From an uncultured virus (IMG/VR IMGVR_UViG_3300033406_000004) (Duplodnaviria > Heunggongvirae > Uroviricota > Caudoviricetes): 20,000 nt of DNA. The notes under the pieces were generated by a model. That model was not told the DNA's origin. It did not search any database and saw only the letters and a list, made by a program, of their open reading frames with translations. The translations under genes were made by a program, and so were the position numbers. Location of the stretch: the IMG/VR virus record IMGVR_UViG_3300033406_000004, one strand, 5' to 3'. This document shows, piece by piece, positions 1,732 through 18,579 of this stretch; position 1 is the first letter of the stretch; each line of letters begins with the position of its first letter.

Positions 1732-1758
1732 AAGAAAAGGGGATTAACCCCCTTTCTT
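1732..1758. terminator. Probable bidirectional intrinsic terminator between convergent terL and portal
   Basis: AAGAAAAGGGG-ATTAA-CCCCCTTTCTT inverted repeat. The single mismatch is a G.U pair on the minus strand, where the stem is followed by U residues. Confidence 0.75.
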
Positions 1759-3763
1759 ATGCCGCTTTTTTAACCACACCATCATTCTTTCCTGCCATAG
1801 AATCATCATTCATAAGCTGAGATAAATGCTGATTGCCTGACTGCTGTTCCACTTGTTGCATCAATGCCGGATCAATCCCCTGAAATGCCAATTGCTGCTG
1901 TTGGGCCTGAGCTTCCTGTGCGGCCTGCTCATCTCTTTTTATTGATTCTAGAATCTTGCCTGAAAAGGCATAAGATGAATTCTCGAGCAATGTTTTTACC
2001 CCTATGGCATTAGACTCGAACAGCTTCATCAGGAATTCATTCTCCAACATCTGGAAAGACGGGGTATTGGGACCGTCTATGATCTGCAGGTCTATGATCG
2101 CATTTTGGACCTTATCCGGATCGTAATACTTAGATTCGTTAGAGTAATCCCTGCCGGCGATATCAAGATATCTGGCAGACTTATAATACTGCTGAATGGT
2201 TTGCACCAGTTTATAATCCCTCCTTCTCCTGAATGCCCGAAACGAATCAAGCAATCCCTTTAAGTTCAGGGATGAATTCTGTACTTGTTGCGCATACAGG
2301 CTGGCTGCCGTGCCCGAAGGAGCCTGCTTGCCCTGCATGGCACCGTTAACGCCTGCTATATCATTGATAAGCTTCAATTGGAGGTTAAGCAATTCATAAT
2401 CACCGGCCGTATTAGCGGATGAATTACATTGCTGAACCACATCCTGAACACGCTTGCCGTCTTTGGGCTTAACAAATATGACTCCGTTATACCTGACATA
2501 TTCATCCACTATTTCCTCCCGATTCATGCTTTCAAACGCACTCTCATCAACGATAATGACACCTTTTGAGGATGCTCCCCGAATAAAGTCGATTAAGGTC
2601 ATTGTGCGATTGATAGCTCTTTGTTGATCTATAAAATCTTCCACGAAGTTGAAAACCCTTCCCTGAACCATCGGATACGCATGAAAAACATAATTATGCT
2701 CTTCATGCCAATAGGGACTTCTGCCTTCCTGCAGCACGTCGCCCCATGGTGTCATGTAACGGTAATACCAATAAAGCTCATTGGAATATTTGTACTCTAT
2801 AAGAAGCACGTCTTCGGGAAGAACACCATTAGCCTGAGCCTCGGCCAGTCTCCTATCGTTCTCAAGATCAAGAGCACGCTTATTCTTGAGATCTTCAAAA
2901 AACCATTTTCCATTCAAAAGATCATGGCAATAATATGCTTCTCTGGTTTCCTGCTTCCACCCGAAAATAACCCGTCGGAGATCCGGACGTGACGGACTGT
3001 AGAAAGTCATGTTCTTATTTTCTTCTCCCTGCAGCCCGTCATAGGAAGCATATAAAGACGTGTATCTTTCATTGCCGTATATCTCTTCTATCCATGCCTT
3101 ATCTTCCGGAGATTTGGCGAAAAGAGAAACAATGTTGTCGATATGCATGTCGTACACTTCGCCAATAACATTCAAATCCCAACCTCTGACATCCTCTATG
3201 TTCGTATTAAAAAACATTCTGGCCGGATTAACGCCGAACACCCAAGCATCGTTGGTTCGTTTGGACGGATTGAAACCGTACTCTATTCTTTGCCCGATAA
3301 AGCCCCCTAAAAGCAATAGGCGCAAGCTGTCAGCATCAAGCTCGTTTAATTCGTTGAGATCATGCACATATTCAAGGGCCAGACTGACCATTTCTCCAAG
3401 CTTGGTCTCCTTCTGATCCCTGACGGAACAAATGGTCTGGGTAACGTTGTTCCTGAACTGTCCGTCTATATTTTTGATAATCGGACTAATCATGTTGTTT
3501 TTAAGAGGAATTTTACCATTCTTCTTAATAAGCTCACCTTCCGTGATGATAGCGTCCGTCTCCGGATCGCGTATATAATCACCCCATTGATCTTCATATG
3601 CATACATGAGGCTTCTGCGCATCTTTTTACGTGCTGTTTCCAGAGAAGCCCAACACGCCGCACACTCTTCGAGGAATTCATGGGCCTCCCCCCTCTCCCG
3701 GGGAACGGCCTGCTTTTCTTTGGTTTTTAAAGGCTTTACGCCTCTATTCAGAAATTTATTCAT
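1757..3763 (-). CDS. Phage portal protein (P22 gp1-like)
   Basis: About 668 aa with DQW, PLKNNMISPIIKNIDGQ, FIDQQRAIN, INDIAGVNGAMQG and a Gln-rich C-terminal tail, adjacent to terL. ATG at 3763 is preferred over the TTG at 3781, which lies inside a promoter-like box. Confidence 0.85.
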   Translation of the reverse strand: MNKFLNRGVKPLKTKEKQAVPRERGEAHEFLEECAACWASLETARKKMRRSLMYAYEDQWGDYIRDPETDAIITEGELIKKNGKIPLKNNMISPIIKNIDGQFRNNVTQTICSVRDQKETKLGEMVSLALEYVHDLNELNELDADSLRLLLLGGFIGQRIEYGFNPSKRTNDAWVFGVNPARMFFNTNIEDVRGWDLNVIGEVYDMHIDNIVSLFAKSPEDKAWIEEIYGNERYTSLYASYDGLQGEENKNMTFYSPSRPDLRRVIFGWKQETREAYYCHDLLNGKWFFEDLKNKRALDLENDRRLAEAQANGVLPEDVLLIEYKYSNELYWYYRYMTPWGDVLQEGRSPYWHEEHNYVFHAYPMVQGRVFNFVEDFIDQQRAINRTMTLIDFIRGASSKGVIIVDESAFESMNREEIVDEYVRYNGVIFVKPKDGKRVQDVVQQCNSSANTAGDYELLNLQLKLINDIAGVNGAMQGKQAPSGTAASLYAQQVQNSSLNLKGLLDSFRAFRRRRDYKLVQTIQQYYKSARYLDIAGRDYSNESKYYDPDKVQNAIIDLQIIDGPNTPSFQMLENEFLMKLFESNAIGVKTLLENSSYAFSGKILESIKRDEQAAQEAQAQQQQLAFQGIDPALMQQVEQQSGNQHLSQLMNDDSMAGKNDGVVKKAA

Positions 3764-3778
3764 AGTTGCTCTTTTAAA

Positions 3779-3786
3779 CAAAAGTA
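3779..3786 (-). promoter_or_regulatory. Bacteroidetes -7 promoter box (TACTTTTG) upstream of portal
   Basis: Matches TAnnTTTG, 15 nt upstream of the portal ATG in the short intergenic gap. No clear -33 box. Confidence 0.5.
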
Positions 3787-3819: not shown

Positions 3820-6800
3820 CTATTTTTTATCCATTTGGTCAAGCTCGTCCAACATTTTAAATTTCATGTCGGCTATTTCGTTTTTGATCTTATCCGAAGA
3901 GCCTTCATCGGCCAATTGTAAAAGAGAAGCGATATCATCGATTTGATTTTTGTAGGCCTTGACAATCATCATACGACGCTCTTCTTCATCGCTTTTCTTT
4001 TCGATATAGCTATCGCCCAAATCGAACCCCTGCCTAAGTCCCCGTTTGTATTCCCGGTCCCGGCTCTGGCTTTCTTCGAGCAACTTCACATATTTCTGAT
4101 ACCTTTCATTTACGACGGAATTTGGCATGGCCGGATCGAATTGATAGCCAAACCTGTTAACCACAGGAATATCTTTCAGCGCCACATCTTCACCAACCAA
4201 TGGGCCGACAGTAGATTTTACCGTCTGCAGGATTGTTTTTCCTACGCCTCCCATATAAGAAAAGAACAAGTGTTCCACAGCCCCCGGATTGAGTAACGGA
4301 GAATCGGCCCATCCCTTTGTCGCAAAATCCCCACCTGTCATAGAATTGAGTGCCTGAGAAGACTTAACCAGCATTTGAGAAGTTCCTTTATAAACCTTCC
4401 TGTACTCAGGTATGTACGTATTATACTCGTTTTTCTTCACGATAGGTCTACCGGTAAATGATCTGTTAGTGATATAAGCGTCCACAAATGGTTTTATCGC
4501 ATCGGGAGTCAGATTCACAAAAGCGGCTCCAACCAAACCATTTTCACCTTTATCAGAACCCTCGATAAAATTTCGGGGACTGGCATCGAGTAGCTTGCCC
4601 AGAACATCGGCACCCACATTCCTGTCATTGTATTTTCCTCCGACGAATTGAGACAAGATATCTCCAACCCCGAAGAATGCGCGAAGTTCAATAGGAAGTG
4701 GAATTGTCACAAAGTTGTCTTCTCCGAAAAACGGGATAACAATATTGTTCTGCCTTATGTAATCAGGCAACTTATCGTAATCATCATCTCCACCCGAGAG
4801 TATGTTATACATCAATGGCATCATGGCCCCCAACATCATCCAAGAACCCATGGCGATAGATGTACGAACAGGATAGTTCTTGAATGTATGAGAGAAGTTA
4901 TACATGCCCTGTATGCCGGCATTCAAAAAGAAGTAGGACATATCAGCCAGCCAGTTGCCTCCGGCTCCGGATCCTTTTCTATTGAAGTTAACGGATAGCT
5001 CTTTTGCGTCCTTAACACTTCGAACGATGCTCCTTCCCTCTTCCCTGGAGGCTATGTATGCGGAGAATCTGGACATATCTTCCGCCCAGCGGTTACATCC
5101 GCTCAAACCTTTAGCGATGACATGGAATGCATCAGACATTTTCCCGGTCCCGTTGGCCTTATCGATCTCTCTCTTAATCTCTTTTTTATATTGCTCATAA
5201 GATGTCAATGCGACAAATCCTGTTTCTCCACCGTTAGAAAGAAATTCATCAAAGTATTTATCGTACTTGCCATCTCCCTCTTTTCCTGTAAGATATCGGG
5301 TTATAGTAGACGAAGCTTCAGGTATAGCCTTTATAAAAGCAAAATTATAAGAAGCATCCTCTCGAATGCCATTCATGGTCATGGCGTAAATCATATCCCT
5401 GCTTAGGTTGGAAAGAACGAAAGCCGGGTTACGGGTGGTGAAGTTTTGCGTCATGAATCGTTTAATATCACCCTGTGTCTTGACAAGCTTGTTATCAAAA
5501 GGCTTCACGTTATTAAGTCCATTCACAGCCTGAGCCACGCGGGGATCACCATTTATGTAGATCACTAAATCCTTCCCGTTCTCTTTGACTTTTATCGCAT
5601 GCTGATCAGCTTGCCACTTTTTAATTGGAACATCAAGAGATAGACCTTTGGTGACTTTCTTCGCCAGACCACTTTTCTCCAGTTCCTCCATTTGCTGATT
5701 AAATCTTTCCAGCGTATCCAAATCCTCTTCTCTGTTACCCGTAAGTTCCGGGACAACTTCCTGCCATACGTCTCCGTTATTCCTGTACCACACCGGAGCA
5801 ATCGTAGCCATATTGGTAGGATAGTTCCTGACCAGAGAAAGAAGATGCTGTTTCATCTCGTTTTTATTTCCGATAAATACGGCACTCTCGGCCATTGAGG
5901 CTATACTTGCCAACGGATCACCCGATTCACTCTTACGGCCATTTGCTTTCATAAGCGGGTTATTGACCACATCGTTTTCATCCTTGAAAAAATAGTCATA
6001 GAAGTCACCGGCGGTCTCTTCGCTCCATGCTCTCAGGGGAATATAGTATTTATACATTTCAGATATCTGCTTCTTGGTAGCTTTATCTATGCATCCTGAA
6101 CTCAATTGTTTGTTAAGGCTAAACGTGTTTGCCCTACGGACTGAATTCCACAAAGATTCCACATCTTTACTGTCGTGATCCTCTTCAAATTCTTCAATGA
6201 ATAGGACGATCTCGTCTTCAAGAAGAGGATCGGTTTCCTCCTGTTTGAATAATCTATGTTGAAGGCCGGTCAATCCGGCATAATCAACGCTTTGTTGTTT
6301 AATGGCGTAGTTGGACAGGTTTTTTATGGCTGCTTTCTTTGCTGTTTCGACAGTCTGATCAATTTTCTTCTGAAATTTATCAATATCAGCTTGGGTGGTA
6401 CCTTTCTTCGATCTCAAAGACATCAGATCTTGTTGCAGTCCGTTCGCTATGCCAAGAACATGCTCATCCATCTGCTTTTGTTTGCGCTCGATAGCGGCAT
6501 TACGCATGTGCAGGTTTCTCTCTATACCATGTTTTGCCTTCATGTAAGACTTGACCAATTCCGCATCACCCAGCTTTACGACGGCATTCACCAGAGGTTT
6601 AAGATAATCGTTCTTAAATTGTTCGATCTCATAAGTAGAGCGGGAAGCAATGGTGTTCTCGTTCGTGTAAGCATCGCAAAACTCTTCTATCTTTCTGCCC
6701 GTATGTCCGGATACCAATTCCTGAAACCGGCGAAGAGGTAACATCCTGTCTTGCCATCCTTCCCTAAACCTGTCATTCCTCAGTTTTGCGGAAAAATCCT

Positions 6801-9800
6801 TTTTCTCTTCATCCGTGAGCTCCACGGCTTCTTCGGCAATCTTTATCTGGTCCCCTATATTCTCCTTTGATAATGTGTTTGAATCAATTACGGGAGGTTT
6901 CTTCTCTTCATCGGGTATTTCCCTGAATAGTTTATCCCGTATATCCAGATCGCGCATCTTTTTGTCTATGCGCTCTTCGATGGTACCGTTTTCCAAATTA
7001 TTCCTGCTTCTCCAAAGAAGATACTTAATGTCATTGTCTGACATTTCAAGTTCTATGCCCGCCTTACGGAAGAGTTCTTTTATTGCGCTGATTACTTTGT
7101 TCCAGATGGAAGGATCAGTTCCCGATTCGGCTTGTTCAGCCAGATATTCTTCGGTAGCGGTTGCGATATCATAATTGTATTTACTGATCGCCTGTTCAGA
7201 GACATGCTTTTTGATATCATCCGGAAGAGATTTAAATATATCATCTATGGTATCATCGAACTTATCACCAAATAATCCCCTTAATCCCTTATGGCCTGCT
7301 ATCTCATGCAACATCGTACGCTGCGCATCAGCAACGCTCGTAGCATTGGGGAGTACGATAACGATCTCACCTGTTTTGGGATCAAACCAGCCTTTAGAAG
7401 TCTTTTTGCGAAGTTGCAGGGACGCATTGTCATCTGTTATCTCATTCATATCCTTTATGAGCCGAACAGGGGTATTCAATTTATCAGATAGCTCCGATAC
7501 GGATTTGGAAATGGCCTCCTGCTCTTTACTTTCCGGTTTGGAAGTGAGGTCCCTTAAAAGATCATTCAGCGAATCCGCACTCCTATGGTAAAGAGCCTTG
7601 TAGTCTTGATTGCTGACGCCTCCATTTTTATCAAGTTTCTTGTAATATTCCGTTTGATCGTTAAGCCTGTCTATGAACCCTTGGATATATTCCTTTGCGG
7701 CATCGGTTGCGTCTTCTTTCAGAGCGTTAAGTGTGTTTATGAGGGTAGAAGCCTCTAGCTCGAAATCTGTAACAAAGGAATTTGGAGTATATTCACTCTT
7801 ACCGCTTTCTTGAGAATATTTAAAATCCGGCTTTCTTCCATTTATATTTCTACCAAATGAGGCCGATAAACGGTAAACCCGATTAGCCACATTATCCATG
7901 GTTGTTTCAGAGCCACGATAACGAATGTCCGTATTATCATTGAGGTTTGAGTCTTTGCCATTAGGAGCTTTCATAAACGAGCCGTCGGCTACAGCTTTAT
8001 CCTTTATTTCTTCAAGTTCATCGGTTTCACGGAATAAAGGAGCATTAGAATTACTTTCTTGATCGGTTGTAATAGCTGCGGCCTCAATCTTTCTATAATC
8101 CGCAAATGGCTTTTCTTTTTTAGTGTCAGTAGACAACCATTTGTCAAACACATCTTTTGAAACACCGGTAATATTTCCTAGGCCGGTCCACCCTTTTTCA
8201 TAGTTCGCGAGGTAGGCATCACGGGCCTCTTGCTCGGAATTGAAACCATACATTACCTTATGTTCATCAAAGGAACCATCAGGATTAACCTGATCCACAA
8301 CATAAACTGTTTCAGGATTAAGATTCTCGCCTAAGAACACGTCTATATGATCACCGTCTTTCCCTTTTGTACCACGAAAATAGCCATAGCTATTATTCAT
8401 TTTAATACTCCAAGGGGTACCTGAATTGTCAATGCCTTTGCGCTCGCTTCCCTTAGGATTTTCAATAGTCACGTCGTATCCTCCGATTTTCACGTGTCCC
8501 ATCTTATAGTTCCCTGCTTCTTTCTGGGCTTCGGAAGGATTGGCATCTACCTTCTGTTCTTCGTCGGATAGTTCTTTAGCTTTTACTATACGAGAAGCAT
8601 AATCGAGTATCGACTCATCTGTCTTTATTTCAGGAGCGACAAAATTCGGTTTTTCCGATTTATCTTCATTACTTTCCTGAGGAAGAGGAGAAACTATTTC
8701 ATCTTCTCGATTTTCGCTTTCTGCTTCTCTATCAGACTCTTCAGAGCCATCTGTTCTATTTCGTTCTTGCTCTCCTTCAAGTCTTTCTCCATCTTTCGAA
8801 GCGTCATTATCTCCGCTATCTTCACCTTGTCCATCTTCTTCTTTATTTAATTGTGAATAAATCTCATTAATTTCATCTATGCTCATGCCTTCATAAAGCA
8901 TCTCAGCATACTCGGCAGCTTCAAATTCGTCTCTCATGGATGACAAGGCCTGCATTTGCTCATCATCCAAGAAATCTATGTAAGATTGAGTCTGTCGCTC
9001 GTAGGCAGGTATCATGTCGCTTTCTACAGCATCAGAGAAAGCTTTCTTCTGAGCTTCAGTCTCAATCATATGATTGGCTTTCTTATACTCAAGATACAAC
9101 TTACCTGTATTGGATTCAGGACCACCTACAGAGAAACCCATTTCGGCAGAAGCAATCTCGCTAAACCTACCCGATAATTTCTTCTGTAAGTCAGAAGTTG
9201 TACGCACATAATTAGTCGGATTACTAAGCATGAAGTCAACAATTTCATTCTCTGTCACTTCATTGCCGAAGCCGCTTAATTCCTGTGCTAAGGTATCAAG
9301 TTCTTCACCGTCTTTTCTCAACCACGCCTTAGCAAAGGTACCATTTATTTTATTTCGGTCTCCAAAACGATTGAATGAATTAGTATTCATTTTTCTTCCT
9401 AATAGCTCACGTTGCCATGGAAGAAGGATGTTTTCGTGACTGGATTGTTCCTTAGCCACGCCATAAGCTCCGGCCAGCTCAATCGGATCATCCGAATTGT
9501 CGGCAGCCCAATCGGCGTATTCCTCATCGGTGGCTATATCATGAGGAGCCTCATTCTCTTTTTGTGGAGACAACAAACTTTTGATGCTTTCCAATCTGGA
9601 CAGCTCTTGGTTGATACGTTTCTTTGTACGTGCCTTCTCTATGGCATTACCCTTTTTCTCCGCATGGGAAAGTTGCTTTTGTTGGTTGGCAATGTCTTCT
9701 TCCACAATAGAGAGAGCATCTTCTCCGAATTCCTTCTTAAGTGCTTTAGCGTACACGGCAGGATCGCTTACCTGCTTATAATCTACATTTCCTTCCTTAT

Positions 9801-12501
9801 CGAGTGGAAGCGTGTTTTCTTCTTGTTCAGCAGGTGTTGTTTCTGACACATTGCTTTGTTCGCCCGACTGAGTAGTCTTATTCAGCCCTACATTTTCTGA
9901 TAAAATGTTATTTTCTTCATCGTTTACTGACGTATTTATGTTTTGCGGCTCTTCTTGGATATTCTCACTTTGAGCATCGGGAGCCGTCGGAGACTGACCG
10001 TTTATTGAGAGGATGTTATTCGATGGAACAACATAATCGTGCTGTCCGTCCGAAATAACGGCTTCTCCTTCCGGGGTGAATCTGGTGACTTCTCCCGTGA
10101 TGCCCTCTGATGTGGTTATGCTGCTTCCAATTTCCAAGGCGGGAGCCTCCTGTGGCAGTTCTGCTTCTTCCTGCTCTACAATTTGTTGCTCTGCGTCCTG
10201 CTCGGCCTGAGAGGCCATGTCTTCAATCGGTGTGGAATCGATCAAAGAAGAGAACATTGAAGGAGGTGCCATTTTGCGTTTTCCCTCTTCATCCAGATAA
10301 TAGATAACCGGGCTTGACTGCCTCTCATCAACATTGCCTTCATCATCAAATGCAAGTGTCCCGCCAACCACATGTGTCGGCTGTTCGGAAGCTTTGGAAG
10401 AAACACGAACGATGGCGTTCATCTCAGGATTAGCAACGCCCTCTACCTGTTTTCTAGCATTCTCTTTCGCTGTCTGTATCTTGTTTGATACATGATTCAG
10501 GTAACCATCAAAATCGCTTTTGGCGGTCAAGTAGTCTTCAATCAAATCTTTGTTTTGGCTTTCCGGCAACTTCTCGGGATGGGCCTCGTAATAATCCAAC
10601 TCCTCTTGAGGGACAGATTCAACTCTCTTTTTGGCCTCTTCAAAGCCGGTGTAGATCTCCGACTTGTTACGCTCTATGCCTTCGGGAACAGAACCTTCCT
10701 TCTCCGCTTTCTGCTCGGCTTCATTCATCCCTTCCAATTCGGTGAGGCGGCCAACAAAATTAAAGATGGCTTTCTTCTTTCCTTCATCCATGGAAGAAGA
10801 AGCGACCTTGGACAAATAGTCTTTTCTATCCTCTACGGATGCATTCTCTAGTGCTGATTTAATCTCACCGAATTGTGAGCCGTAGACATTGTTCGCTTCA
10901 TCCTCCGCTTGGGAAAGCTTTCTCTCGGCTTCCAGTTTAGGCCTGCGATAACCAATCGCTTTAGAAGAAGACATGATGCCACTCATAAGGCTGACGCTAA
11001 GGAATGTTTCCACATTCTGCCCGGGATCGACAACATCCGACCACGATTGATCCCCTACTATGGCGGCATTCATCGCATTGCCGGCTACTTCTTCGGCATA
11101 CTCGCCGAATGTACCGTGAAATTGAGCGTTCTTTTCAAAATCATTCACGGTCTTCGCCCAATCCGAAGTGCTTACCTTATTAAGCATTTCACCGACTTTA
11201 GTGGCTTTTAAAGCTTTGAATGGCTTGGTAGAAGAGATAACGTCACCCACTTTGCCAATGGCCGGTGCAAAATATTCTCCCAACATTTCGGAGAAATCAT
11301 TTATCGTATTGGAGGCGAAAGCTTTCCCAATCGCTTTAGGAGTTGTTTCTCCTCCCCCGGTGCCTGCGAATTGGGCACGCCCCTCTTTATCTTGGTTAAA
11401 CTTCACGTCTCCCGTTTTTCTGGCTAAGGCATCACCAGCAACATTACCTGCGTGAATCGTTGAGGACATGCCGGCGGCTCCGACAAGATCACCCGCAGTC
11501 CTCAAAATAGCATTCTTGATTATCTGCCCCGTTGTCTTCTCCGCGGCCTCGGTTCCGAACTTACCTACGGCCGCTTTGCCTAGTCCTTGTAAGCCACCCG
11601 ATAATAGGAAGTCTTTCATGTATGAAGCTGATTCAGCAGTGCCGGAACCTATCCTGTAAGGCATGCCGATATCTTTCATGAATTTCTCATCGGATAACGC
11701 TTCTAGTGCGGCACTTTCAAGAAGAGTTTTTTCGCTATCGCTTAAAGGTTCTCCTTTCTCTTTCTTCATGGCGGCAGAGAGCAGGGCACCATTTTCTTTC
11801 ATATCACTAACCCCGAAATCCCATGTGCCAAGCTTTTTAGCTTTATCATAAAATCCTCGACCTATCTCACTTATGGTATTGGTACCATTTGCCTTGCGTC
11901 GGGATGTATCAATGACATCCTTCACATCTTTCGCTTTATTGATAGATGCTTTGGCCGTCATAACAGGGGTGGATGATTCTATCGCATTCATCTGCCCGCC
12001 CGTTCCCTCGGAAGCCACATTGGCAAATGCGCTCAAGATAGGATGTTCGGTAGAGAACTTATTTCGTTTGTCAATCTCGCTGTTTATAGCCGCTCCGTAT
12101 TGTCCCTCTGCCCGTTGCTGAATATCATTCGCCTGCGCTTCGGCTTTCTTTCTCTGTTCCTCTTCGTAATAGTACGCCTTGGATTCAGGTTTCAGATGCT
12201 GAAAGACTGCGTAGGGCATTCCGAACACCTTCGTGTTTTTGCCTGTACCCTCAACATACTGAGAAACATGAGGAGAAGCATCGGAGGGTTTGAAATCAGA
12301 AGCGATGGAACTATAGAACGATTTGGAATCTCCTATCTCCTCGTTATTAAAACCAGCCTTCAACAGATTGTCATGGAACTTAGCCGCACTGGCTTCATCC
12401 TTTATCGCACTTTTAAACTGATCCCGGGTGCCTATCTCTGATTCGCTAACCTTGCCTGATTTGACAAGGTTATCATATAATTTATCTCTATTGTCTTGCA
12501 T
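3820..12501 (-). CDS. Large polyvalent / DNA-ejection (internal virion) protein, 2893 aa, with InPase, zincin metallopeptidase and LPD38-like domains
   Basis: Gly/Ala-rich helical N-terminal region, InPase motifs (GNYKMGH, DGDHIDV, DEHKV), HEIAGH...TEEYLAE peptidase motif, and a C-terminal LPD38-like region (LPDYIRQNNIVIP...IPLPIELR...NRSFTGRPIV). Third gene of a small-medium-large trio upstream of the portal. Confidence 0.85.
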   Translation of the reverse strand: MQDNRDKLYDNLVKSGKVSESEIGTRDQFKSAIKDEASAAKFHDNLLKAGFNNEEIGDSKSFYSSIASDFKPSDASPHVSQYVEGTGKNTKVFGMPYAVFQHLKPESKAYYYEEEQRKKAEAQANDIQQRAEGQYGAAINSEIDKRNKFSTEHPILSAFANVASEGTGGQMNAIESSTPVMTAKASINKAKDVKDVIDTSRRKANGTNTISEIGRGFYDKAKKLGTWDFGVSDMKENGALLSAAMKKEKGEPLSDSEKTLLESAALEALSDEKFMKDIGMPYRIGSGTAESASYMKDFLLSGGLQGLGKAAVGKFGTEAAEKTTGQIIKNAILRTAGDLVGAAGMSSTIHAGNVAGDALARKTGDVKFNQDKEGRAQFAGTGGGETTPKAIGKAFASNTINDFSEMLGEYFAPAIGKVGDVISSTKPFKALKATKVGEMLNKVSTSDWAKTVNDFEKNAQFHGTFGEYAEEVAGNAMNAAIVGDQSWSDVVDPGQNVETFLSVSLMSGIMSSSKAIGYRRPKLEAERKLSQAEDEANNVYGSQFGEIKSALENASVEDRKDYLSKVASSSMDEGKKKAIFNFVGRLTELEGMNEAEQKAEKEGSVPEGIERNKSEIYTGFEEAKKRVESVPQEELDYYEAHPEKLPESQNKDLIEDYLTAKSDFDGYLNHVSNKIQTAKENARKQVEGVANPEMNAIVRVSSKASEQPTHVVGGTLAFDDEGNVDERQSSPVIYYLDEEGKRKMAPPSMFSSLIDSTPIEDMASQAEQDAEQQIVEQEEAELPQEAPALEIGSSITTSEGITGEVTRFTPEGEAVISDGQHDYVVPSNNILSINGQSPTAPDAQSENIQEEPQNINTSVNDEENNILSENVGLNKTTQSGEQSNVSETTPAEQEENTLPLDKEGNVDYKQVSDPAVYAKALKKEFGEDALSIVEEDIANQQKQLSHAEKKGNAIEKARTKKRINQELSRLESIKSLLSPQKENEAPHDIATDEEYADWAADNSDDPIELAGAYGVAKEQSSHENILLPWQRELLGRKMNTNSFNRFGDRNKINGTFAKAWLRKDGEELDTLAQELSGFGNEVTENEIVDFMLSNPTNYVRTTSDLQKKLSGRFSEIASAEMGFSVGGPESNTGKLYLEYKKANHMIETEAQKKAFSDAVESDMIPAYERQTQSYIDFLDDEQMQALSSMRDEFEAAEYAEMLYEGMSIDEINEIYSQLNKEEDGQGEDSGDNDASKDGERLEGEQERNRTDGSEESDREAESENREDEIVSPLPQESNEDKSEKPNFVAPEIKTDESILDYASRIVKAKELSDEEQKVDANPSEAQKEAGNYKMGHVKIGGYDVTIENPKGSERKGIDNSGTPWSIKMNNSYGYFRGTKGKDGDHIDVFLGENLNPETVYVVDQVNPDGSFDEHKVMYGFNSEQEARDAYLANYEKGWTGLGNITGVSKDVFDKWLSTDTKKEKPFADYRKIEAAAITTDQESNSNAPLFRETDELEEIKDKAVADGSFMKAPNGKDSNLNDNTDIRYRGSETTMDNVANRVYRLSASFGRNINGRKPDFKYSQESGKSEYTPNSFVTDFELEASTLINTLNALKEDATDAAKEYIQGFIDRLNDQTEYYKKLDKNGGVSNQDYKALYHRSADSLNDLLRDLTSKPESKEQEAISKSVSELSDKLNTPVRLIKDMNEITDDNASLQLRKKTSKGWFDPKTGEIVIVLPNATSVADAQRTMLHEIAGHKGLRGLFGDKFDDTIDDIFKSLPDDIKKHVSEQAISKYNYDIATATEEYLAEQAESGTDPSIWNKVISAIKELFRKAGIELEMSDNDIKYLLWRSRNNLENGTIEERIDKKMRDLDIRDKLFREIPDEEKKPPVIDSNTLSKENIGDQIKIAEEAVELTDEEKKDFSAKLRNDRFREGWQDRMLPLRRFQELVSGHTGRKIEEFCDAYTNENTIASRSTYEIEQFKNDYLKPLVNAVVKLGDAELVKSYMKAKHGIERNLHMRNAAIERKQKQMDEHVLGIANGLQQDLMSLRSKKGTTQADIDKFQKKIDQTVETAKKAAIKNLSNYAIKQQSVDYAGLTGLQHRLFKQEETDPLLEDEIVLFIEEFEEDHDSKDVESLWNSVRRANTFSLNKQLSSGCIDKATKKQISEMYKYYIPLRAWSEETAGDFYDYFFKDENDVVNNPLMKANGRKSESGDPLASIASMAESAVFIGNKNEMKQHLLSLVRNYPTNMATIAPVWYRNNGDVWQEVVPELTGNREEDLDTLERFNQQMEELEKSGLAKKVTKGLSLDVPIKKWQADQHAIKVKENGKDLVIYINGDPRVAQAVNGLNNVKPFDNKLVKTQGDIKRFMTQNFTTRNPAFVLSNLSRDMIYAMTMNGIREDASYNFAFIKAIPEASSTITRYLTGKEGDGKYDKYFDEFLSNGGETGFVALTSYEQYKKEIKREIDKANGTGKMSDAFHVIAKGLSGCNRWAEDMSRFSAYIASREEGRSIVRSVKDAKELSVNFNRKGSGAGGNWLADMSYFFLNAGIQGMYNFSHTFKNYPVRTSIAMGSWMMLGAMMPLMYNILSGGDDDYDKLPDYIRQNNIVIPFFGEDNFVTIPLPIELRAFFGVGDILSQFVGGKYNDRNVGADVLGKLLDASPRNFIEGSDKGENGLVGAAFVNLTPDAIKPFVDAYITNRSFTGRPIVKKNEYNTYIPEYRKVYKGTSQMLVKSSQALNSMTGGDFATKGWADSPLLNPGAVEHLFFSYMGGVGKTILQTVKSTVGPLVGEDVALKDIPVVNRFGYQFDPAMPNSVVNERYQKYVKLLEESQSRDREYKRGLRQGFDLGDSYIEKKSDEEERRMMIVKAYKNQIDDIASLLQLADEGSSDKIKNEIADMKFKMLDELDQMDKK
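4140..4790 (-). other. LPD38-like C-terminal domain of the giant protein (approximate limits)
   Basis: DYDKLPDYIRQNNIVIP, IPLPIEL, PDAIKPFVDAYITNRSFTGRPI and YMGGVG pattern, recalled from polyvalent-protein C-termini. Confidence 0.7.
6990..7480 (-). other. Zincin-like metallopeptidase domain (HExxxH) of the giant protein (approximate limits)
   Basis: KGWFDPKTGEIVIV strand, TMLHEIAGHKGLR (HEIAGH at 7291..7308) and downstream TEEYLAEQAE carrying the likely third ligand. Confidence 0.75.
7915..8015 (-). other. Remnant N-terminal leader of a polyvalent-protein ADP-ribosyltransferase domain, fused directly to its end linker
   Basis: IKDKAVADGSFMKAPNGKDSNLN is followed at once by DNTDIRYR. The expected QW-QVRT-FK-WFGDW...VYHG core is absent. 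Confidence 0.55.
8090..8550 (-). other. Inorganic pyrophosphatase-like (InPase) domain of the giant protein
   Basis: VDANPSEAQKEAGNYKMGH...IENPKGSER...YGYFRGTKGKDGDHIDVFLG...FDEHKVMYGF. DGDxxD is the family I PPase acidic motif. Confidence 0.85.
8694..8834 (-). CDS. Putative nested out-of-frame gene, 46 aa: MDKVKIAEIMTLRKMEKDLKESKNEIEQMALKSLIEKQKAKIEKMK
   Basis: Translated by hand in the +1 frame of the giant gene, ATG at 8834 to TAG at 8694. A-rich leader TTAAATAAAGAAGAAG with A at -3. Amphipathic two-helix pattern with no Pro, Gly, Cys or Trp. Confidence 0.6.
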   Translation of the reverse strand: MDKVKIAEIMTLRKMEKDLKESKNEIEQMALKSLIEKQKAKIEKMK

Positions 12502-12503
12502 AA

Positions 12504-13616
12504 CTAAGGAAGTAAAGAGGGTTTGTTGTTATTCGGCAAAAGGCTTGCAGATTTTGCGGCTTTTGGAGTTGGAGCGCCTCCTCCGACCAGTTGATTGAAC
12601 TCTCCTGTGAGTTGGGGAAAGTCGGCTATGCGACGCTTTACAATAGAGATGATCTTGGTCGCCTGATCTCCGCCTTCACCCATTTTCATATTGATATCAT
12701 CCAGTGTTCCGTATTTCTGGGGATTCTTCTCCGACTCTTCTTTCATCCTATTGTAGAGAGACAAAAGGGCACCATTCTTACTCTTGGGATAATCTACGGT
12801 TGTGCGTTTACCGTCGGATCCGGTAAGCGTAATAGAATCCATGCCGGTGGAGGAATTACCTTTGCTCGCATTCGTGGCCGCATTCTGTTGAGCGGCCTGA
12901 GCGGACATGCGTTGAGATTGAGCGTTGTAACCCGCCGTGCTCTCCGATTTCTTATTATGCCTTGCCGTCTCCATAAGAACCTTGTCGGCATGTTCCTGAC
13001 TGATTTTATGATTGCGGACCTGTTCCTGCAGAGCGTCATACTTATACTTCATCTCTTCACCAAACTGTCCGTTCTGTATATCAAGCTTATACTTGTCAAG
13101 CGATTGCTTTTGCTTTAGTTGGTCTTCGGCACGCTTTAGCTCAAAGTCTTTGTATTGAGAGCTGAGAACTTTGTTCTGATAATCAATATTCTCATTTCGT
13201 TTCATATCTTGCAAGCTCTGAATCCGCTCATTGGCTTTTGCCGTTTGACTTTGCATGGGAGAAAAAGCCCGTGCGCCCCTGCTAAGGGCCATTCCTTGTG
13301 CGAAGATGTTAGCCATGTCACCTATGAGGGCGGCACTACGATTTCTTCTGAGACGTTTTTCTTCATCGTCAAAATTTGGCCTGTTCCAGTTCTTAAGGAC
13401 ATTATAATATCCCTCGCTGCTAACTCTGTCTGAAACAGAAGGAACATTCTTTTCTTGAGGTACTTCGTCTTGGGGTGGGACTTGCTCAACAGGCTGCTGA
13501 GTTGTCTGAACTTCATCAACAGGCTGTGTAACCGGAACTGCCGGATCTGCAGAATCTGCTATAGCAGGTTGCTTGGCGGTTTTCTCTGTAGGATATAAGT
13601 ATTCAGTCAGTCTCAT
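12504..13616 (-). CDS. Putative medium ejection / internal virion protein, 370 aa
   Basis: P/Q/V-rich N-terminus, an amphipathic segment (AALIGDMANIFAQGMAL), a long coiled coil and an Ala/Ser/Gln-rich linker. ATGA overlap with the upstream gene and a 2-nt gap to the giant gene. Function inferred from position. Confidence 0.6.
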   Translation of the reverse strand: MRLTEYLYPTEKTAKQPAIADSADPAVPVTQPVDEVQTTQQPVEQVPPQDEVPQEKNVPSVSDRVSSEGYYNVLKNWNRPNFDDEEKRLRRNRSAALIGDMANIFAQGMALSRGARAFSPMQSQTAKANERIQSLQDMKRNENIDYQNKVLSSQYKDFELKRAEDQLKQKQSLDKYKLDIQNGQFGEEMKYKYDALQEQVRNHKISQEHADKVLMETARHNKKSESTAGYNAQSQRMSAQAAQQNAATNASKGNSSTGMDSITLTGSDGKRTTVDYPKSKNGALLSLYNRMKEESEKNPQKYGTLDDINMKMGEGGDQATKIISIVKRRIADFPQLTGEFNQLVGGGAPTPKAAKSASLLPNNNKPSLLP

Positions 13617-14173
13617 GCTAAGTTGTTTTTCTTAATTGTGTCGTTAACTGTAGGAGCACTGGAGGCTCCACTCTTACCCCAATTTACTCCCTGAAGGGCC
13701 TGACCGATTAATCCCATACTATTAGAGCCAACCTGTGAAGCACCGTTTTCACCGGCTGCCGATTGAGCTATTTTCTGACTCATTACATTTTGCTGATTCT
13801 GATTATTCACGGCATCAACCTGCTCTTTTTTCTCGTCCCCTCTGGCGGCCAGTCCGGCAACGGTGTCACTCATCAGTTTCTGATCGTTCGCCTGCTGGGC
13901 CAGAACGCCTTCTTGTGTGCCTCCTGTTACGGCTGCCGTAGCCTGAGCTTCCTGATTACGTCTGCGCATTGTATCCTCGACTCTCTTTATGGCAGCCTTT
14001 GAACCGGTAGAATCTAAATAATCCTGATAGTAATTACGCTCATACCAGGCATTGTTTTTCGCCTCTTGCTGCTTTAGCAAATTCTTTTGCTCTTTAGCAG
14101 CATCTGCCGATTTAAACATCCCGTAAATTCCGTTGGCCAGACCGACACCGGCTCCAATTGCACTTAATAACAT
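13613..14173 (-). CDS. Putative small ejection protein (P22 gp7 / T7 gp14-like), 186 aa
   Basis: N-terminal Gly/Ala hydrophobic segment (LLSAIGAGVGLANGIYGMF), then a Gln/Ala coiled coil and a Gly-rich C-terminal segment. First gene of the trio. Confidence 0.68.
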   Translation of the reverse strand: MLLSAIGAGVGLANGIYGMFKSADAAKEQKNLLKQQEAKNNAWYERNYYQDYLDSTGSKAAIKRVEDTMRRRNQEAQATAAVTGGTQEGVLAQQANDQKLMSDTVAGLAARGDEKKEQVDAVNNQNQQNVMSQKIAQSAAGENGASQVGSNSMGLIGQALQGVNWGKSGASSAPTVNDTIKKNNLA

Positions 14174-14315: not shown

Positions 14316-14346
14316 TAGATCAACAACTTACGGAAAATTAGTGATT

Positions 14347-14832
14347 ATGAAAAAAGTCAAACAATATAATGCACCTGCGACCGGGACGAGAAGAAAATAT
14401 AGCATGGAAGAGAAAGTGGAAATTCTTCGCGTGCTCAAAGACAATTCGTACGACTACAAAAAGACGAGCGTTCAGACGGGATGCAATTATGGCACGCTGA
14501 AAATGTGGTATGTGAAGTACAAAGACAACTTGGCCAATCTGAATGCCGTCGATATGATTGCGGAGAAAACAGAGCTCAATTTATCAAAGGCGAAAGTAAG
14601 ATTCATCGAAAGACATTATAACCAGTTAAGCCAACTGGCGGAAACATCAATAGGCAGGGCATTGGAATTGCTCAAAGACGAGAAAGACCTGAATAAGGTT
14701 AACGACACGATTAAGATAGTGACGGATTACTTCGCCAAGCTATCCACCAATGAAGAGCAGAAAGAGACGGGGAACAGCCTTATACAACAAACCATCATAG
14801 CACTGAACTCTTTTAATAAGTCCGAGCAATAA
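14347..14832 (+). CDS. N-terminal helix-turn-helix protein; candidate terminase small subunit or regulator
   Basis: RRKYSMEEKVEILRVL...YKKTSVQTGCNYGTLKMW is an HTH of the HTH_Tnp_1/TerS type, followed by long helices. ATG 14347 preferred over GTG 14341. Confidence 0.6.
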   Translation: MKKVKQYNAPATGTRRKYSMEEKVEILRVLKDNSYDYKKTSVQTGCNYGTLKMWYVKYKDNLANLNAVDMIAEKTELNLSKAKVRFIERHYNQLSQLAETSIGRALELLKDEKDLNKVNDTIKIVTDYFAKLSTNEEQKETGNSLIQQTIIALNSFNKSEQ

Positions 14833-14885: not shown

Positions 14886-16094
14886 TTAGTAATTCACTAC
14901 CGCCAGATCAAAATCTCCCGGAGAATTGGTATAATCAATAACTCGGCAAATTGCCGCATCGGCCTGTCTTTGCATGATACGCACATAATTGTAAATTGGG
15001 CGGTTCTCTTTCATCGACTGGCCTATACAATATTCAATGATCTCCGTCTTTATTCCAAGGTCGAAAGCAAACTGAGAGAAAGTCTTTCTTCCGGAGTAAA
15101 AAGAGAACTCTGTTTCAATGCCTACCACTTTGGCCAGATTCTTCAAACACCTGTTTAAATAGCGTTGGAAGTTTGAATACGAGAAATTATACCCGAAATC
15201 CAACTTCCCGTTTCTCTTTAGGTATTTCTTGATAATTGGTTTGGCTTCATCCGGAATAGAAAAGGTTATCGACTTATCTCCCTGCTTATTCAAGTTCGTT
15301 TTTTGCCGGACATACTTTATCGTGTCACCGCTGAAATCCACCTGAACGATATCGGCCAGATTCATTCCGCCAAGATAGAAAGAGAGCAGAAACAAATCTT
15401 TTGCGAGGGACAAACGTTTGTGTTTGGTCTCGAGCGTGCGGATTCGGTTAAACTCCTCTATTGTTATATCCAACTGCTTGATGTTGGACCTTGGCATTTT
15501 GGTATATGCGAAAGGATGGACCTCGTATTTAACCATACCGTCACGTATGGCCTCGTTGATACTGGCTTTCAGATGAGTCAGGCGCATTTGCTTGGTTGCG
15601 TTGCTCAAGTTACTCATACCCCTGACAAACTTATCAATGGTTCCGGGAGAGAAACTTTGAAGGGTTATGTCACCAATGATATTAAGTATCTTGGTGAGGG
15701 TGTAGACATTCATATCCGCATAACTCCCCCTGCCCTCTTTCCGCAATCTCTCAATGCGTTGTTCCATCCATTCTTTGATGGTGGTCAACTGCTCTATCCG
15801 ATGTTTGCCTTCGAGTATTTCTTTTATCTGTGCGCTATTGTATACATACTGATCAGGAATGCCCTCAAGCTTCTCCTGATATTCCGAAAGAACATACTTT
15901 AGACGCAGATTCATCGTGTTTGCGTCTTTGCGACAGATAACCTTGCCATTTTCAAATTGGTATAGACCATCAATCACATAATCCGTTTTAATGTAACGGA
16001 TGTCATTGCGGGTTTGCATAACCGCAATATAAATAGGATACTTTTTTTCTAAAGTTCGTCTTGATCTTAAGACTGATAAATAAATTGTTGCCAT
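14886..16094 (-). CDS. int: Tyrosine recombinase / phage integrase (Bacteroidetes type: arm-binding, SAM-like and catalytic domains)
   Basis: 402 aa. N-terminal YPIYIAV...RYIKT arm-binding pattern, LFLLSFYLGGMNLADI, YVRQKT, FYSGRKTF, IGQS and C-terminal YNYV. Adjacent to a tRNA 3' end. Confidence 0.92.
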   Translation of the reverse strand: MATIYLSVLRSRRTLEKKYPIYIAVMQTRNDIRYIKTDYVIDGLYQFENGKVICRKDANTMNLRLKYVLSEYQEKLEGIPDQYVYNSAQIKEILEGKHRIEQLTTIKEWMEQRIERLRKEGRGSYADMNVYTLTKILNIIGDITLQSFSPGTIDKFVRGMSNLSNATKQMRLTHLKASINEAIRDGMVKYEVHPFAYTKMPRSNIKQLDITIEEFNRIRTLETKHKRLSLAKDLFLLSFYLGGMNLADIVQVDFSGDTIKYVRQKTNLNKQGDKSITFSIPDEAKPIIKKYLKRNGKLDFGYNFSYSNFQRYLNRCLKNLAKVVGIETEFSFYSGRKTFSQFAFDLGIKTEIIEYCIGQSMKENRPIYNYVRIMQRQADAAICRVIDYTNSPGDFDLAVVNY

Positions 16095-16400: not shown

Positions 16401-17855
16401 CTATAGTCCTAAGGGTAAACCAGTTATATACCAAATAAAAAGAAGAAGTATCCATGCCAAAAGAATGTAAACAGAGTATCGCCAAGTGTATTTCAGCAAA
16501 GATCCGTAAGTGATTTGTCGTTCGTAATGCTGCATGTAGGTAAGCACCAAAGGCATGTAAAACAGAAAAGGAGTAAGAGCGTTGGTTGAACTGTCACCTA
16601 CTCGATAAGCACACTGCGTTAGTTCGGGGGCTATGCCCAGTTGCTGAAATACAGGAACAAAAATAAAAGCCATAAAAGTCCATTTGGTGGTGGATGATAC
16701 CATAATAAGATTGATCACAGCTGTGAACAAGATAAATAGAAGAAGAATGCCCATGTTGCTTATATTAAGCGATAAGAGAAGATCTGCACCACCAATAGCC
16801 AGACACTTATCTAAATGAGAATATTCCAGGCAAGCAAACATTTGGGCTGCAAAAAAAGCGATCACCAGATAAATGCCTAACATTTGCATCGGCTGCGTTA
16901 AACCATCGATGACATCAACATCACTACGATAACGCCCGGAAGCGAAACCATAAACCATCCCCATAAGTCCTACACCAAAGGATATAAGGAATAGAATGCC
17001 CATAATGAAAGGAGAACGAATGAGTCCACCATTTACCCCACGTAGTATGCCCCAAGGAGAAAAAGTAGCCAGAAGAATTGCGACTAAATAGAGCGTGCCT
17101 ATCAGAAAAGAAATAACAAGTGCTCTGCGTTCTTTATGCGAGAGTTGTTTATACCCTTCAGGAGTTACTTCACCGTGATAGCTTCCCAAAGCAGGAAGTA
17201 AATTCCTACGCGTTATAAAATAAATGATGCCAGCAATGAGGAAAGTGGAAACGAACATAAAGTAATAGTTGGACAGGGGACCAACATTCCCACTGAAAGG
17301 CGAAAGGTTTAAAGCTGCATCTTGTGTAGTAGATGCTATCAGAGGATCAAGTGTGGTAAGCACCAAGTTAGCACTATAACCACAAGCCACAGAAACATAA
17401 GCAGTAATGATACCGGCTATGGGGTGAAGTCCCACGGAATGGAAAAGTGTTGCTGCTATAGGTAACAAAATAATATATCCCGCATCACCCACTACATTAG
17501 AAAGCACTCCCAAAAAGATAACCCAAAGAATGATGCGACGAGGATTACGGTGTTTCTTTAATCCGCGACGAATGCAAGCTCCAATGAAGCCTGAGTGTTG
17601 AGCCACTCCTACGCCAAAGAGAGCAACAATGACTAACCCCAAGGGAACAAAGCCTGTGAAATTTGTGACTACACTACGTAGCAACCAACGGATACTTTCG
17701 GGACTAAGCAGGCTTTGCACACGAATTTCACGTCCTGTCTGAGGATGAACAACGTTCAGCCCATAGATATCAAATATCCACGAGAGGAACACGATGACCA
17801 TCGTAAGCAGGAAAAACATCGTGGCGGGGTGAGGCATGTGCCATCTATTCTTCAT
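16401..17855 (-). CDS. abgT: AbgT family transporter (p-aminobenzoyl-glutamate / antimetabolite transporter)
   Basis: MPHPATMF, NFTGFVPLG, GLHPIAGIITAYVSVACGYSAN and AYRVGDSSTN motifs, with many TM helices. ATG 17855 overlaps the upstream gene's end and is preferred over 17885. Confidence 0.9.
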   Translation of the reverse strand: MKNRWHMPHPATMFFLLTMVIVFLSWIFDIYGLNVVHPQTGREIRVQSLLSPESIRWLLRSVVTNFTGFVPLGLVIVALFGVGVAQHSGFIGACIRRGLKKHRNPRRIILWVIFLGVLSNVVGDAGYIILLPIAATLFHSVGLHPIAGIITAYVSVACGYSANLVLTTLDPLIASTTQDAALNLSPFSGNVGPLSNYYFMFVSTFLIAGIIYFITRRNLLPALGSYHGEVTPEGYKQLSHKERRALVISFLIGTLYLVAILLATFSPWGILRGVNGGLIRSPFIMGILFLISFGVGLMGMVYGFASGRYRSDVDVIDGLTQPMQMLGIYLVIAFFAAQMFACLEYSHLDKCLAIGGADLLLSLNISNMGILLLFILFTAVINLIMVSSTTKWTFMAFIFVPVFQQLGIAPELTQCAYRVGDSSTNALTPFLFYMPLVLTYMQHYERQITYGSLLKYTWRYSVYILLAWILLLFIWYITGLPLGL

Positions 17856-18573
17856 CGGCCTCAATATTATCAAGATCAATGACACGAAGTTCTAAAGCCC
17901 GTACAACAAGTCGGGTAGCATTCACTCCCACCCTCTCACCTTCTGCAAAAAGCCGACCTACAAGATCGTTCTGTCGTTTCTCAAGGGATTTCACCCCAAA
18001 CGGCATACCTTTGAGTGCTGCGATCATATCTTTGGTATATCCCAAAGCCAAATGACGCAGAAAGCGTTCGTCGTATTCATCGATGTCATAACCGATAACT
18101 GCCTCTTGTCTGCGCGCATCGTTGGCAACAGATTTCTTGAATCGGTCTACTATCTTCTCAAGAATTGGATAATTAAAAACAAGTTTCTTTCCATCCATTA
18201 CGGCTTGTACATCTGTTTTAGTAAGTAGCTCGCCTGTTTTCAAAATGATGCCATCGGCTCCTGCATCTAGTACATCTACCCAAAGTTTCTCGTTCAAGAT
18301 TTCGCCTGTAAAAATGAGCACTCGCACACCCGGATATCGTTTACAGATGTTGCGACAGATGTCGACGCCTATCGTAGTAGAGCCACCCAAGCCAAGATCG
18401 AGCAATACCATATCGGGCTGCCGACTTTCAATAAGAGGCCAGAACTCTTTCTCTGTCATAGCCGTGCCAATAACTTCTGCATTGGGTATTTCGTGGCGAA
18501 AGATTTCTTCGGTTCCTTTAAGTTCGAGTTTAACGTCTTCTACTATAATTACTTTAAACTGTTTTTCTTCCAT
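17845..18573 (-). CDS. Response regulator, REC domain plus LuxR-like HTH
   Basis: IIVED, VLLDLGL (phosphoacceptor Asp), IFTG, GADGIILK; C-terminal FLRHLALGYTKDMIA...VKSLEKRQNDL. Confidence 0.88.
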   Translation of the reverse strand: MEEKQFKVIIVEDVKLELKGTEEIFRHEIPNAEVIGTAMTEKEFWPLIESRQPDMVLLDLGLGGSTTIGVDICRNICKRYPGVRVLIFTGEILNEKLWVDVLDAGADGIILKTGELLTKTDVQAVMDGKKLVFNYPILEKIVDRFKKSVANDARRQEAVIGYDIDEYDERFLRHLALGYTKDMIAALKGMPFGVKSLEKRQNDLVGRLFAEGERVGVNATRLVVRALELRVIDLDNIEADEE

Positions 18574-18579
18574 CTTTCT

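Follow-up and report, generated by a model that had tools for sequence, protein, structure and literature searches.

Some small phage genes are fully embedded in the +1 frame of another gene, with a start of their own, as in the Rz/Rz1 spanins of phage lambda or in phiX174, where gene E lies inside gene D. Rz1 is a lipoprotein with a lipobox cysteine, and it is the partner of its host gene's product in lysis. In type II toxin-antitoxin and polymorphic toxin-immunity pairs, a small partner gene abuts a domain. Here we describe ORF A, an open reading frame (ORF) of 46 amino acids (aa) nested out of frame in a giant virion protein gene of an uncultured Caudoviricetes virus (IMG/VR record IMGVR_UViG_3300033406_000004). 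The DNA analysed is a stretch of 20,000 nucleotides, hereafter the window, situated at the end of a 65,431-base virus record. Comparison with related loci indicates that ORF A (8694..8834, minus strand) is very probably a gene that annotation misses. Its architecture is like that of Rz1: it is enclosed entirely in an ORF of a different frame, uses a start and a stop of its own, and shows purifying selection in the +1 frame. Unlike Rz1, it has neither cysteine nor signal peptide, and what the host gene reads from the same DNA is a disordered linker of a virion protein of 2893 aa.

The host gene (3820..12501, minus strand) belongs to the polyvalent proteins (Iyer et al. 2017, PMC5512222), having several polyvalent-type domains in one 2893-aa polypeptide: LPD14 at aa 399-515 (E 1.1e-21), InPase at aa 1324-1456 (E 1.7e-56) and LPD38 at aa 2572-2781 (E 1.2e-34). 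Relatives carry further domains of this type, Kinase-PolyVal, MuF_C, ART-PolyVal or PBECR5. Small ORFs neighbouring polyvalent proteins have been likened to polymorphic-toxin cassettes (PMC5512222). The words "linker", "low-complexity" and "overlap" are absent from the main text of that paper, and nested genes or internal promoters in polyvalent genes appear not to be described in that main text. A literature search on polyvalent or giant phage proteins whose genes contain nested or overlapping ones, which left most subscription journals uncovered, returned general papers on overlapping genes and only one comparable case, that of mycobacteriophage methylase genes with hidden HNH insertions (ShiLan domain/Pacc40; Arsenault et al. 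2025, PMC11855218). Like ShiLan, ORF A is an out-of-frame gene wholly inside a host gene that stays open, the insertion probably forming a loop (PMC11855218). The ShiLan element is however a homing endonuclease with a patchy distribution (PMC11855218), whereas ORF A encodes a 46-aa helical peptide fixed at one module boundary, and HNH nuclease features are absent from it (no His, no Cys, no Pfam match).

The ATG of ORF A, at 8834, sits in the codons GAT GGA of the giant gene's own frame (hereafter the main frame), and its TAG stop, ending at 8694, sits in GAA ATA G. Read in the main frame, the same DNA codes for an acidic linker (aa 1223-1269; 8695..8835, minus strand). Retranslation of 8694-8834(-) gave the ORF, peptide, ATG, stop, leader and A at -3 just as the original prediction, made from the sequence alone, had described them. 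The peptide has a pI of 9.5 and a net charge of +3.5, with no Cys and no His, and a sequence check revealed neither a lipobox Cys nor a hydrophobic leader or signal peptide. The pattern of its residues suggests that the product is probably a helical hairpin, with a (S/T)KN(E/P) turn. No Pfam family matched the peptide at E<=0.01, and PHROG gave only short, weak matches of coiled-coil type that differed among family members. A search of the ESM Atlas with ORF A, or with the upstream domain X described below, gave nothing above 0.80.

Every one of the 161 stops in the +1 frame of the giant gene stems from a main-frame I/L/V/M codon, and a linker devoid of hydrophobic residues is therefore almost automatically open in the +1 frame. 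The giant gene indeed holds seven further +1 ORFs starting with ATG, of 39-50 codons each. When the linker was recoded synonymously 5000 times, 78.5% of the recodings stayed open, and 58.9% were both open and provided with an ATG at the same site. Such a shuffling had been put forward in the original prediction as a test of the gene, and its outcome goes against using length and start as evidence. ORF length, openness and ATG, all three explained by composition, were thus dropped as arguments, and the case has to rest on conservation.

Homologous loci were collected with the region preceding ORF A as query. This region consists of a domain that we call X, with a helical core carrying a conserved SFxRFGDxN motif (aa ~985-1136; 9094..9549, minus strand), followed by Xc, a variable acidic helical segment (aa ~1137-1222; 8836..9093, minus strand); the query was domain X. 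Five lineages, sharing 50-99% identity in the X core, were found to have a +1 ORF at the site of ORF A: the window with L001/L013, L002 (=L008), L003-L005 (=L034/L036), a gut clade of 15 loci (L017-L031), and L053. All five keep the ATG and the open frame, and the stop falls within ~10 codons of the same point. The homologues are 46-56 aa long, with two amphipathic stretches flanking the turn. Their alignment shows two invariant leucines and, in two lineages, a 4-residue insertion at the turn, and hydrophobic positions are conserved between lineages that share only 21-48% identity. In 10/10 lineage pairs, the +1 peptides outscored the main-frame linkers, the weakest pair being significant in neither frame (z 0.8). 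Compared with the +1 peptides of the three farther lineages, the window peptide scored 176, against 73 +/- 12.5 for synonymous recodings, and 0/5000 recodings reached 176. This null also strips plain nucleotide ancestry, which is why codon-position tests matter.

Across the lineages, the main-frame third position was the most conserved one within the overlap (0.39 differing, or 0.45 if aligned on the main frame), whereas it was the least conserved in domain X (0.54 differing). Selection was then measured within the gut clade, where the 15 loci represent 5 haplotypes over 48 codons. Changes at main-frame positions 1/2/3 numbered 12/4/6 in the ORF A region, compared to 16/3/65 in X and 11/7/27 in the kinase domain found in this clade (Fisher p=0.0003). 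The pN/pS ratio of the ORF A region was 0.34 in the +1 frame (p=0.012) versus 1.22 in the main frame. An ordinary pattern was seen in the adjoining stretch of linker, devoid of an ORF, with pN/pS of 0.47 in the main frame and 1.81 in +1, on 11 changes only. Closer to the window, neither the two differences of L013 nor the one variant seen in three contig sets change the +1 peptide, and 2/3 alter the main frame. The main-frame trace of xATG-G is a dipeptide [NYHD][GAVED], found at most 9 residues from the last acidic Xc helix in 12/14 close-clade proteins; it also occurs in 39% of background linker windows, and in 18/28 of all helix-pattern proteins, and the significance of this test (p=0.0005) is overstated because the sequences are related. 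The comparison of frames that the original prediction had called for, on ATG, stop and selection, thus came out in favour of +1, and its view of the linker as a by-product of an overprinted gene gains from the ATG and frame kept in five lineages and from the pN/pS ratios. We regard it as highly probable, from these comparisons and selection tests, that the acidic linker is the shadow of a real nested gene.

The initiation region of ORF A (8835..8864, minus strand), which also codes for the last acidic Xc helix, is AT-rich, has no Shine-Dalgarno (SD) motif, carries an A at -3 and is unstructured, as judged with a leader matrix and a structure ranking. A start-site matrix derived from 48 long ORFs of this virus record placed the leader of ORF A 4th among 225 internal ATGs, and the three above it open ORFs of <20 codons. 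Its score of 3.0 is under that of most real starts (median ~5.6). Positions -30..+30 around the ATG belong to the least structured 1%. An ATG with an AT-rich leader was found in all five lineages, with A at -3 in 6/8 ORF A loci, and by eye most genes of the record also have AT-rich leaders without an SD motif. Initiation in Bacteroidetes is promoted by A at -3 and weak structure (PMC6847099), and the SD-less start of Bacteroidetes type proposed originally fits these observations. The TAnnTT(T/C)G promoter motif was found within 200 nt upstream of none of the 8 ORF A starts, and ORF A is therefore probably read from the giant gene's own mRNA. In the window phage, no full promoter motif was found anywhere inside the giant gene. 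A TA(C/A)(C/A)TTTG site exists inside X (GTFAK codons), ~500 nt before ORF A, in three lineages; it has no -33 box, is missing in the gut clade, and was not counted as a promoter.

What ORF A travels with was examined starting from domain X, for which 254 representatives were found at E<=0.001; among the 150 listed, most are giant proteins. The domain has no Pfam family. It is predicted to be mostly alpha-helical by a confident model (pLDDT 88), for which comparison with PDB folds gave no clear match (best Z 6.6 over 42 residues, rmsd 1.0), and a sequence search gave no relative of solved structure. In BFVD, a single close homologue was found, from Podoviridae sp. ctsfx1, while a structural protein of Tenacibaculum phage Gundel_1 matched weakly (E 0.18), and the domain was not found in the GTDB contigs or GenBank phages searched. 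A motif scan returned 75 loci, 23 of them X-positive, of which only L136 and L172 were new; the 52 X-negative loci were dropped. A profile of the main-frame shadow of ORF A matched 10/150 proteins at >=57 bits, always 64-91 aa after X, and about seven more proteins showed weaker matches at a similar offset. The ORF A family was found in 4/8 X-positive records versus 0/12 X-negative ones, a comparison made with a short profile and in which no more than 4 of the X-negative records reach >=90% completeness. When the window is set against L008, identity is 97% in the X core and 94% in InPase, but 37% in Xc and 41% in ORF A; by these figures, Xc and ORF A have changed as a block. Searches for free-standing ORF A homologues, which covered near lengths only and required shared 5-mers, so that longer or fused forms were not searched, gave none with single sequences and, with the profile, one called protein, identical to a nested gut-clade copy. 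Scanning three positive records with the ORF A profile returned only the nested copy in each, and a scan for a split-gene arrangement with P0036, an X protein that ends soon after X, returned nothing. At L016:1494-1661, on a 234-kb contig, a giant-gene copy is cut off inside X and followed by unrelated sequence.

Downstream of ORF A the content is variable, being InPase, a kinase cassette or other domains, and the kinase cassette or other domains can separate ORF A from InPase. In the window, a spacer with an FVAP..DY helix (8533..8694, minus strand) leads to the InPase domain (PF18823; 8134..8532, minus strand), and the phage has no kinase. In the sister phage L001/L013, the place of this spacer is taken by a cassette that starts right after ORF A and comprises a TTTG-N19-TATATTTG motif, which matches the -33/-7 promoter consensus of Bacteroidales (PMC8748976), a nested +1 ORF of 59 aa, named ORF B, and a Kinase-PolyVal domain. 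A scan for the kinase gave 29 loci, of which 15, from ten lineages, were examined, the gut clade with its 15 copies being represented by one and the remaining 14 loci being all included. Each of the 15 has a +1 ORF of ~45-65 aa whose end lies just ahead of the kinase, and each has a TAnnTT(T/C)G motif 202-334 nt upstream of the kinase, reading exactly TAnnTTTG in 8 cases and provided with a -33-like box in 6. The +1 peptides were more alike than the main frame in 38/45 pairs. The position of the cassette differs between giant genes, being aa 1389 in one and aa 4155 in another. Its layout resembles the antitoxin-then-toxin order of a toxin-antitoxin operon, here read through as a linker. Six called proteins match ORF B, and the gut-clade selection test on it comprised 6 changes only. 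The polyvalent kinase was not found in the plasmids or phages searched. The idea of nested partner cassettes contained in the original prediction thus holds in relatives for ORF B before the polyvalent kinase (15/15), and is not supported for ORF A with InPase. Cassette loci include L013:4881-5608, L017:6012-6710, L068:6909-7600(-) and L102-L115, and ORF B often reads Y(L/F)N(Q/K)FHK..E. In P0158, a called protein of 88 aa, ORF B runs into the N-terminus of the kinase, suggestive of a frameshifted variant of the cassette.

Other nested families occupy comparable positions. After X, L012:4135-4257 and L055:5602-5694 share a second +1 family (z 8.0 in +1, 3.1 in the main frame). The slot of this family (L012, L055, L136) begins after a main-frame W.(D/E)D motif, the candidates of L136, L056 and L059 being unconfirmed. 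A third one (MDxxEAMxWxxxLxxANxG) follows a ddrB-ParB module in L135 and in phage BS-TP4 (z 16.4 in +1, 3.5 in the main frame). Its sites, L212:4415-4576 (BS-TP4), L213:3956 (BKO1-TP3) and L135, are unannotated in the GenBank records. Our filter retained one unannotated +1 candidate in the giant gene of each of three cultured phages (BF1-TP2, BS-TP4 and BKO1-TP3), two of these genes having been analysed without their first 190-350 codons. In BF1-TP2 (gp68, L211:5810-5992), an unannotated 61-aa +1 ORF of unrelated sequence occupies the window's slot, between a faintly X-like acidic helical region and an FVAP..DY-InPase module. Full TTTG-N-TAnnTTTG motifs were seen in a FFDSxTGKxYLC coding stretch of two phages (L062, aa 1523 and 1644; L068, aa 3815 and 3932), ~120 codons before a +1 ORF of 79-86 aa (ORF C). 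In the 4963-aa giant gene of L066, a 62-aa +1 ORF candidate is present at aa 1980, before an apparent helicase/methylase start.

How may such an arrangement work? The giant gene very probably reads through the small gene ORF A in another frame. Read one base back, a helical protein rich in Lys/Glu/Leu/Ile gives Glu/Asp/Ser/Gly/Asn, and this shifted reading very probably provides the giant protein with a flexible hinge that links its N-terminal part to a variable effector array. Translation of ORF A would probably occur by internal initiation, without an SD motif, on the late mRNA that also yields the giant protein. Its basic hairpin (+3.5) may pack on the acidic helices of X (net charge ~-12) and Xc (~-14 over aa 1150-1222), making it a dedicated partner of X and Xc, chaperone or neutraliser in the producing cell until packaging, and nesting would keep module and partner inherited as one in-frame block. 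In agreement with this, the identity of the nested family follows the upstream module, ORF A in the X records and the third family after ddrB-ParB in L135 and BS-TP4. Taken as a whole, this chain, from real gene through internal initiation to partner of the X/Xc module, is the likeliest of the explanations considered but falls a little short of being probable, and several observations weigh against it. The five lineages are few and mutually related, and in that of L034/L036, a T replaces the A at -3. There is some circularity in the shadow profile, 4/10 of its strong matches lying near its own training loci. That ORF A is inherited together with X follows in large part from mere adjacency, and the loci were gathered by an X query. 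The 97% identical X cores that go with 41% identical ORF A show that the latter is not locked to the X core, nor is it to Xc, which in L017/L053 is 22% identical for an ORF A at 48%. Parallel divergence of a partner and its cognate domain, as in toxin-antitoxin systems, was thus not observed between ORF A and the X core; ORF A further differs from such pairs in lying inside the effector gene's frame and in having no promoter. X also occurs directly before other domains, with no linker (P0019, P0020, P0022), and in L172 it forms a gene by itself, with an open frame of 195 codons, the next gene, of 102 aa, being unrelated. Distant X loci have other +1 candidates (L012/L055/L136, L056, L059), or no convincing one (L057, L058). 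Finally, InPase is also present in all ten strong-shadow proteins. The stand-alone X of L172 precedes genes which, by eye, resemble packaging genes.

Several of these observations lend themselves to another explanation, in which ORF A is an independent passenger, a small late gene between an X-ending gene and effector genes that was engulfed by read-through, and whose product acts on the host or on assembly rather than on its neighbours. ORF A diverges faster than both of its flanks, unrelated nested families are found in the same slot before InPase (L135, BF1-TP2, BS-TP4, BKO1-TP3), and both the stand-alone X and X proteins ending soon after X (P0033, P0036) exist. No free-standing homologue emerged from the near-length, shared-5-mer searches, the sole called protein being a nested gut-clade copy, and the match between nested family and upstream module is not what a passenger would predict; we hold this explanation to be possible, if rather doubtful. 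Proteins ending shortly after X would also be compatible with entry into the +1 frame by ribosomal frameshifting, which would put a helical C-terminal tail on a ~1270-aa form of the giant protein and likewise yield purifying selection in +1. Yet in 3/5 lineages the open stretch of the +1 frame extends just 4 codons upstream of the ATG, the ATG and its AT-rich leader are present in all five, and the shadow dipeptide varies as N/Y/D, as a conserved ATG predicts. No common slippery site was noticed by eye, no systematic search for such sites having been made, and frameshifting appears very improbable.

The original prediction had also proposed that ORF A could be an antidote of the downstream InPase, or of another downstream effector. 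InPase does occur in all ten strong-shadow proteins, at a distance of 158-533 aa from X on the C-terminal side, three cultured phages have nested ORFs ahead of InPase (its position was checked in two), and the kinase cassette shows that the order partner before effector exists in this family. However, InPases that are 94% identical are paired with ORF A copies that are 41% identical, the peptides before InPase come from unrelated families, other domains can intervene, 15/40 InPase domains directly follow a kinase or other globular domain by eye, and 5/12 X-negative records have InPase with no match to the ORF A family. The role proposed for InPase, to clear pyrophosphate or target nucleotide signals (PMC5512222), also argues against an antidote. 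The InPase link is disfavoured because ORF A, unlike the kinase partner, has no promoter and because it does not track InPase, and an antidote of a downstream effector is in our opinion quite unlikely. It is about as unlikely, or barely less so, that ORF A is an untranslated by-product of linker composition and shared ancestry, or of a constraint at the nucleotide level. In favour of such a by-product, composition leads one to expect both the open frame and the ATG, plain nucleotide homology is lost as well in the synonymous null, and the within-clade test stands on 21 changes. It would not account for a codon-position pattern inverted relative to X in the same lineages, for the ordinary pattern of the neighbouring ORF-free linker (on its 11 changes), or for hydrophobic positions conserved at such low identity between lineages.

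Concerning the surroundings, the giant gene is directly followed by a P22-like portal gene, identified by a domain match (1757..3781, minus strand), and preceded in the same operon by two genes of 186 and 370 aa (12504..14173, minus strand), which gene order designates as probable smaller ejection proteins and for which no Pfam or PHROG match was found. PHROG matches to head and virion proteins cover the InPase region of the giant protein. The adjacency of the portal, these matches and the description of polyvalent proteins (PMC5512222) suggest that the giant protein is an ejection protein, injected from the virion. The closest GenBank matches of the record are three temperate Bacteroides phages (isolation paper PMC12694917), and together with the AT-rich SD-less leaders they point to a host among Bacteroidales. 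A small HTH protein is encoded opposite the ejection operon, at 14341-14832 (+), and an integrase with a SAM-like domain, at 14886-16094 (-), marks the prophage end, beyond which apparent host transporter and response-regulator genes are found (16401-19998).

Low-complexity linkers of giant phage proteins are usually dismissed as spacers, and the linker studied here is very probably the out-of-frame reading of a conserved protein. The unannotated candidates in the cultured Bacteroides phages BF1-TP2, BS-TP4 and BKO1-TP3 make this idea testable at the bench. If the nested products are cognate partners, they would explain how a phage makes and packages enzymes that may be harmful to the producer, and how an exchanged effector module brings its protection along; the hidden genes would be small natural inhibitors of polyvalent domains, and gene callers could apply the rule of scanning hydrophilic linkers in the +1 frame. 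More generally, we tentatively suggest that the polyvalent giant genes of Bacteroidales-type phages may grow by swallowing gene units, each with its hidden +1 partner: ORF A to chaperone or neutralise X, ORF B as a promoter-driven antidote against the injected kinase, and the third family for ddrB-ParB. The partner, and for the kinase also the promoter, would then be read through as a linker. If true, this would amount to an unannotated layer of effector-immunity genetics inside virion proteins.

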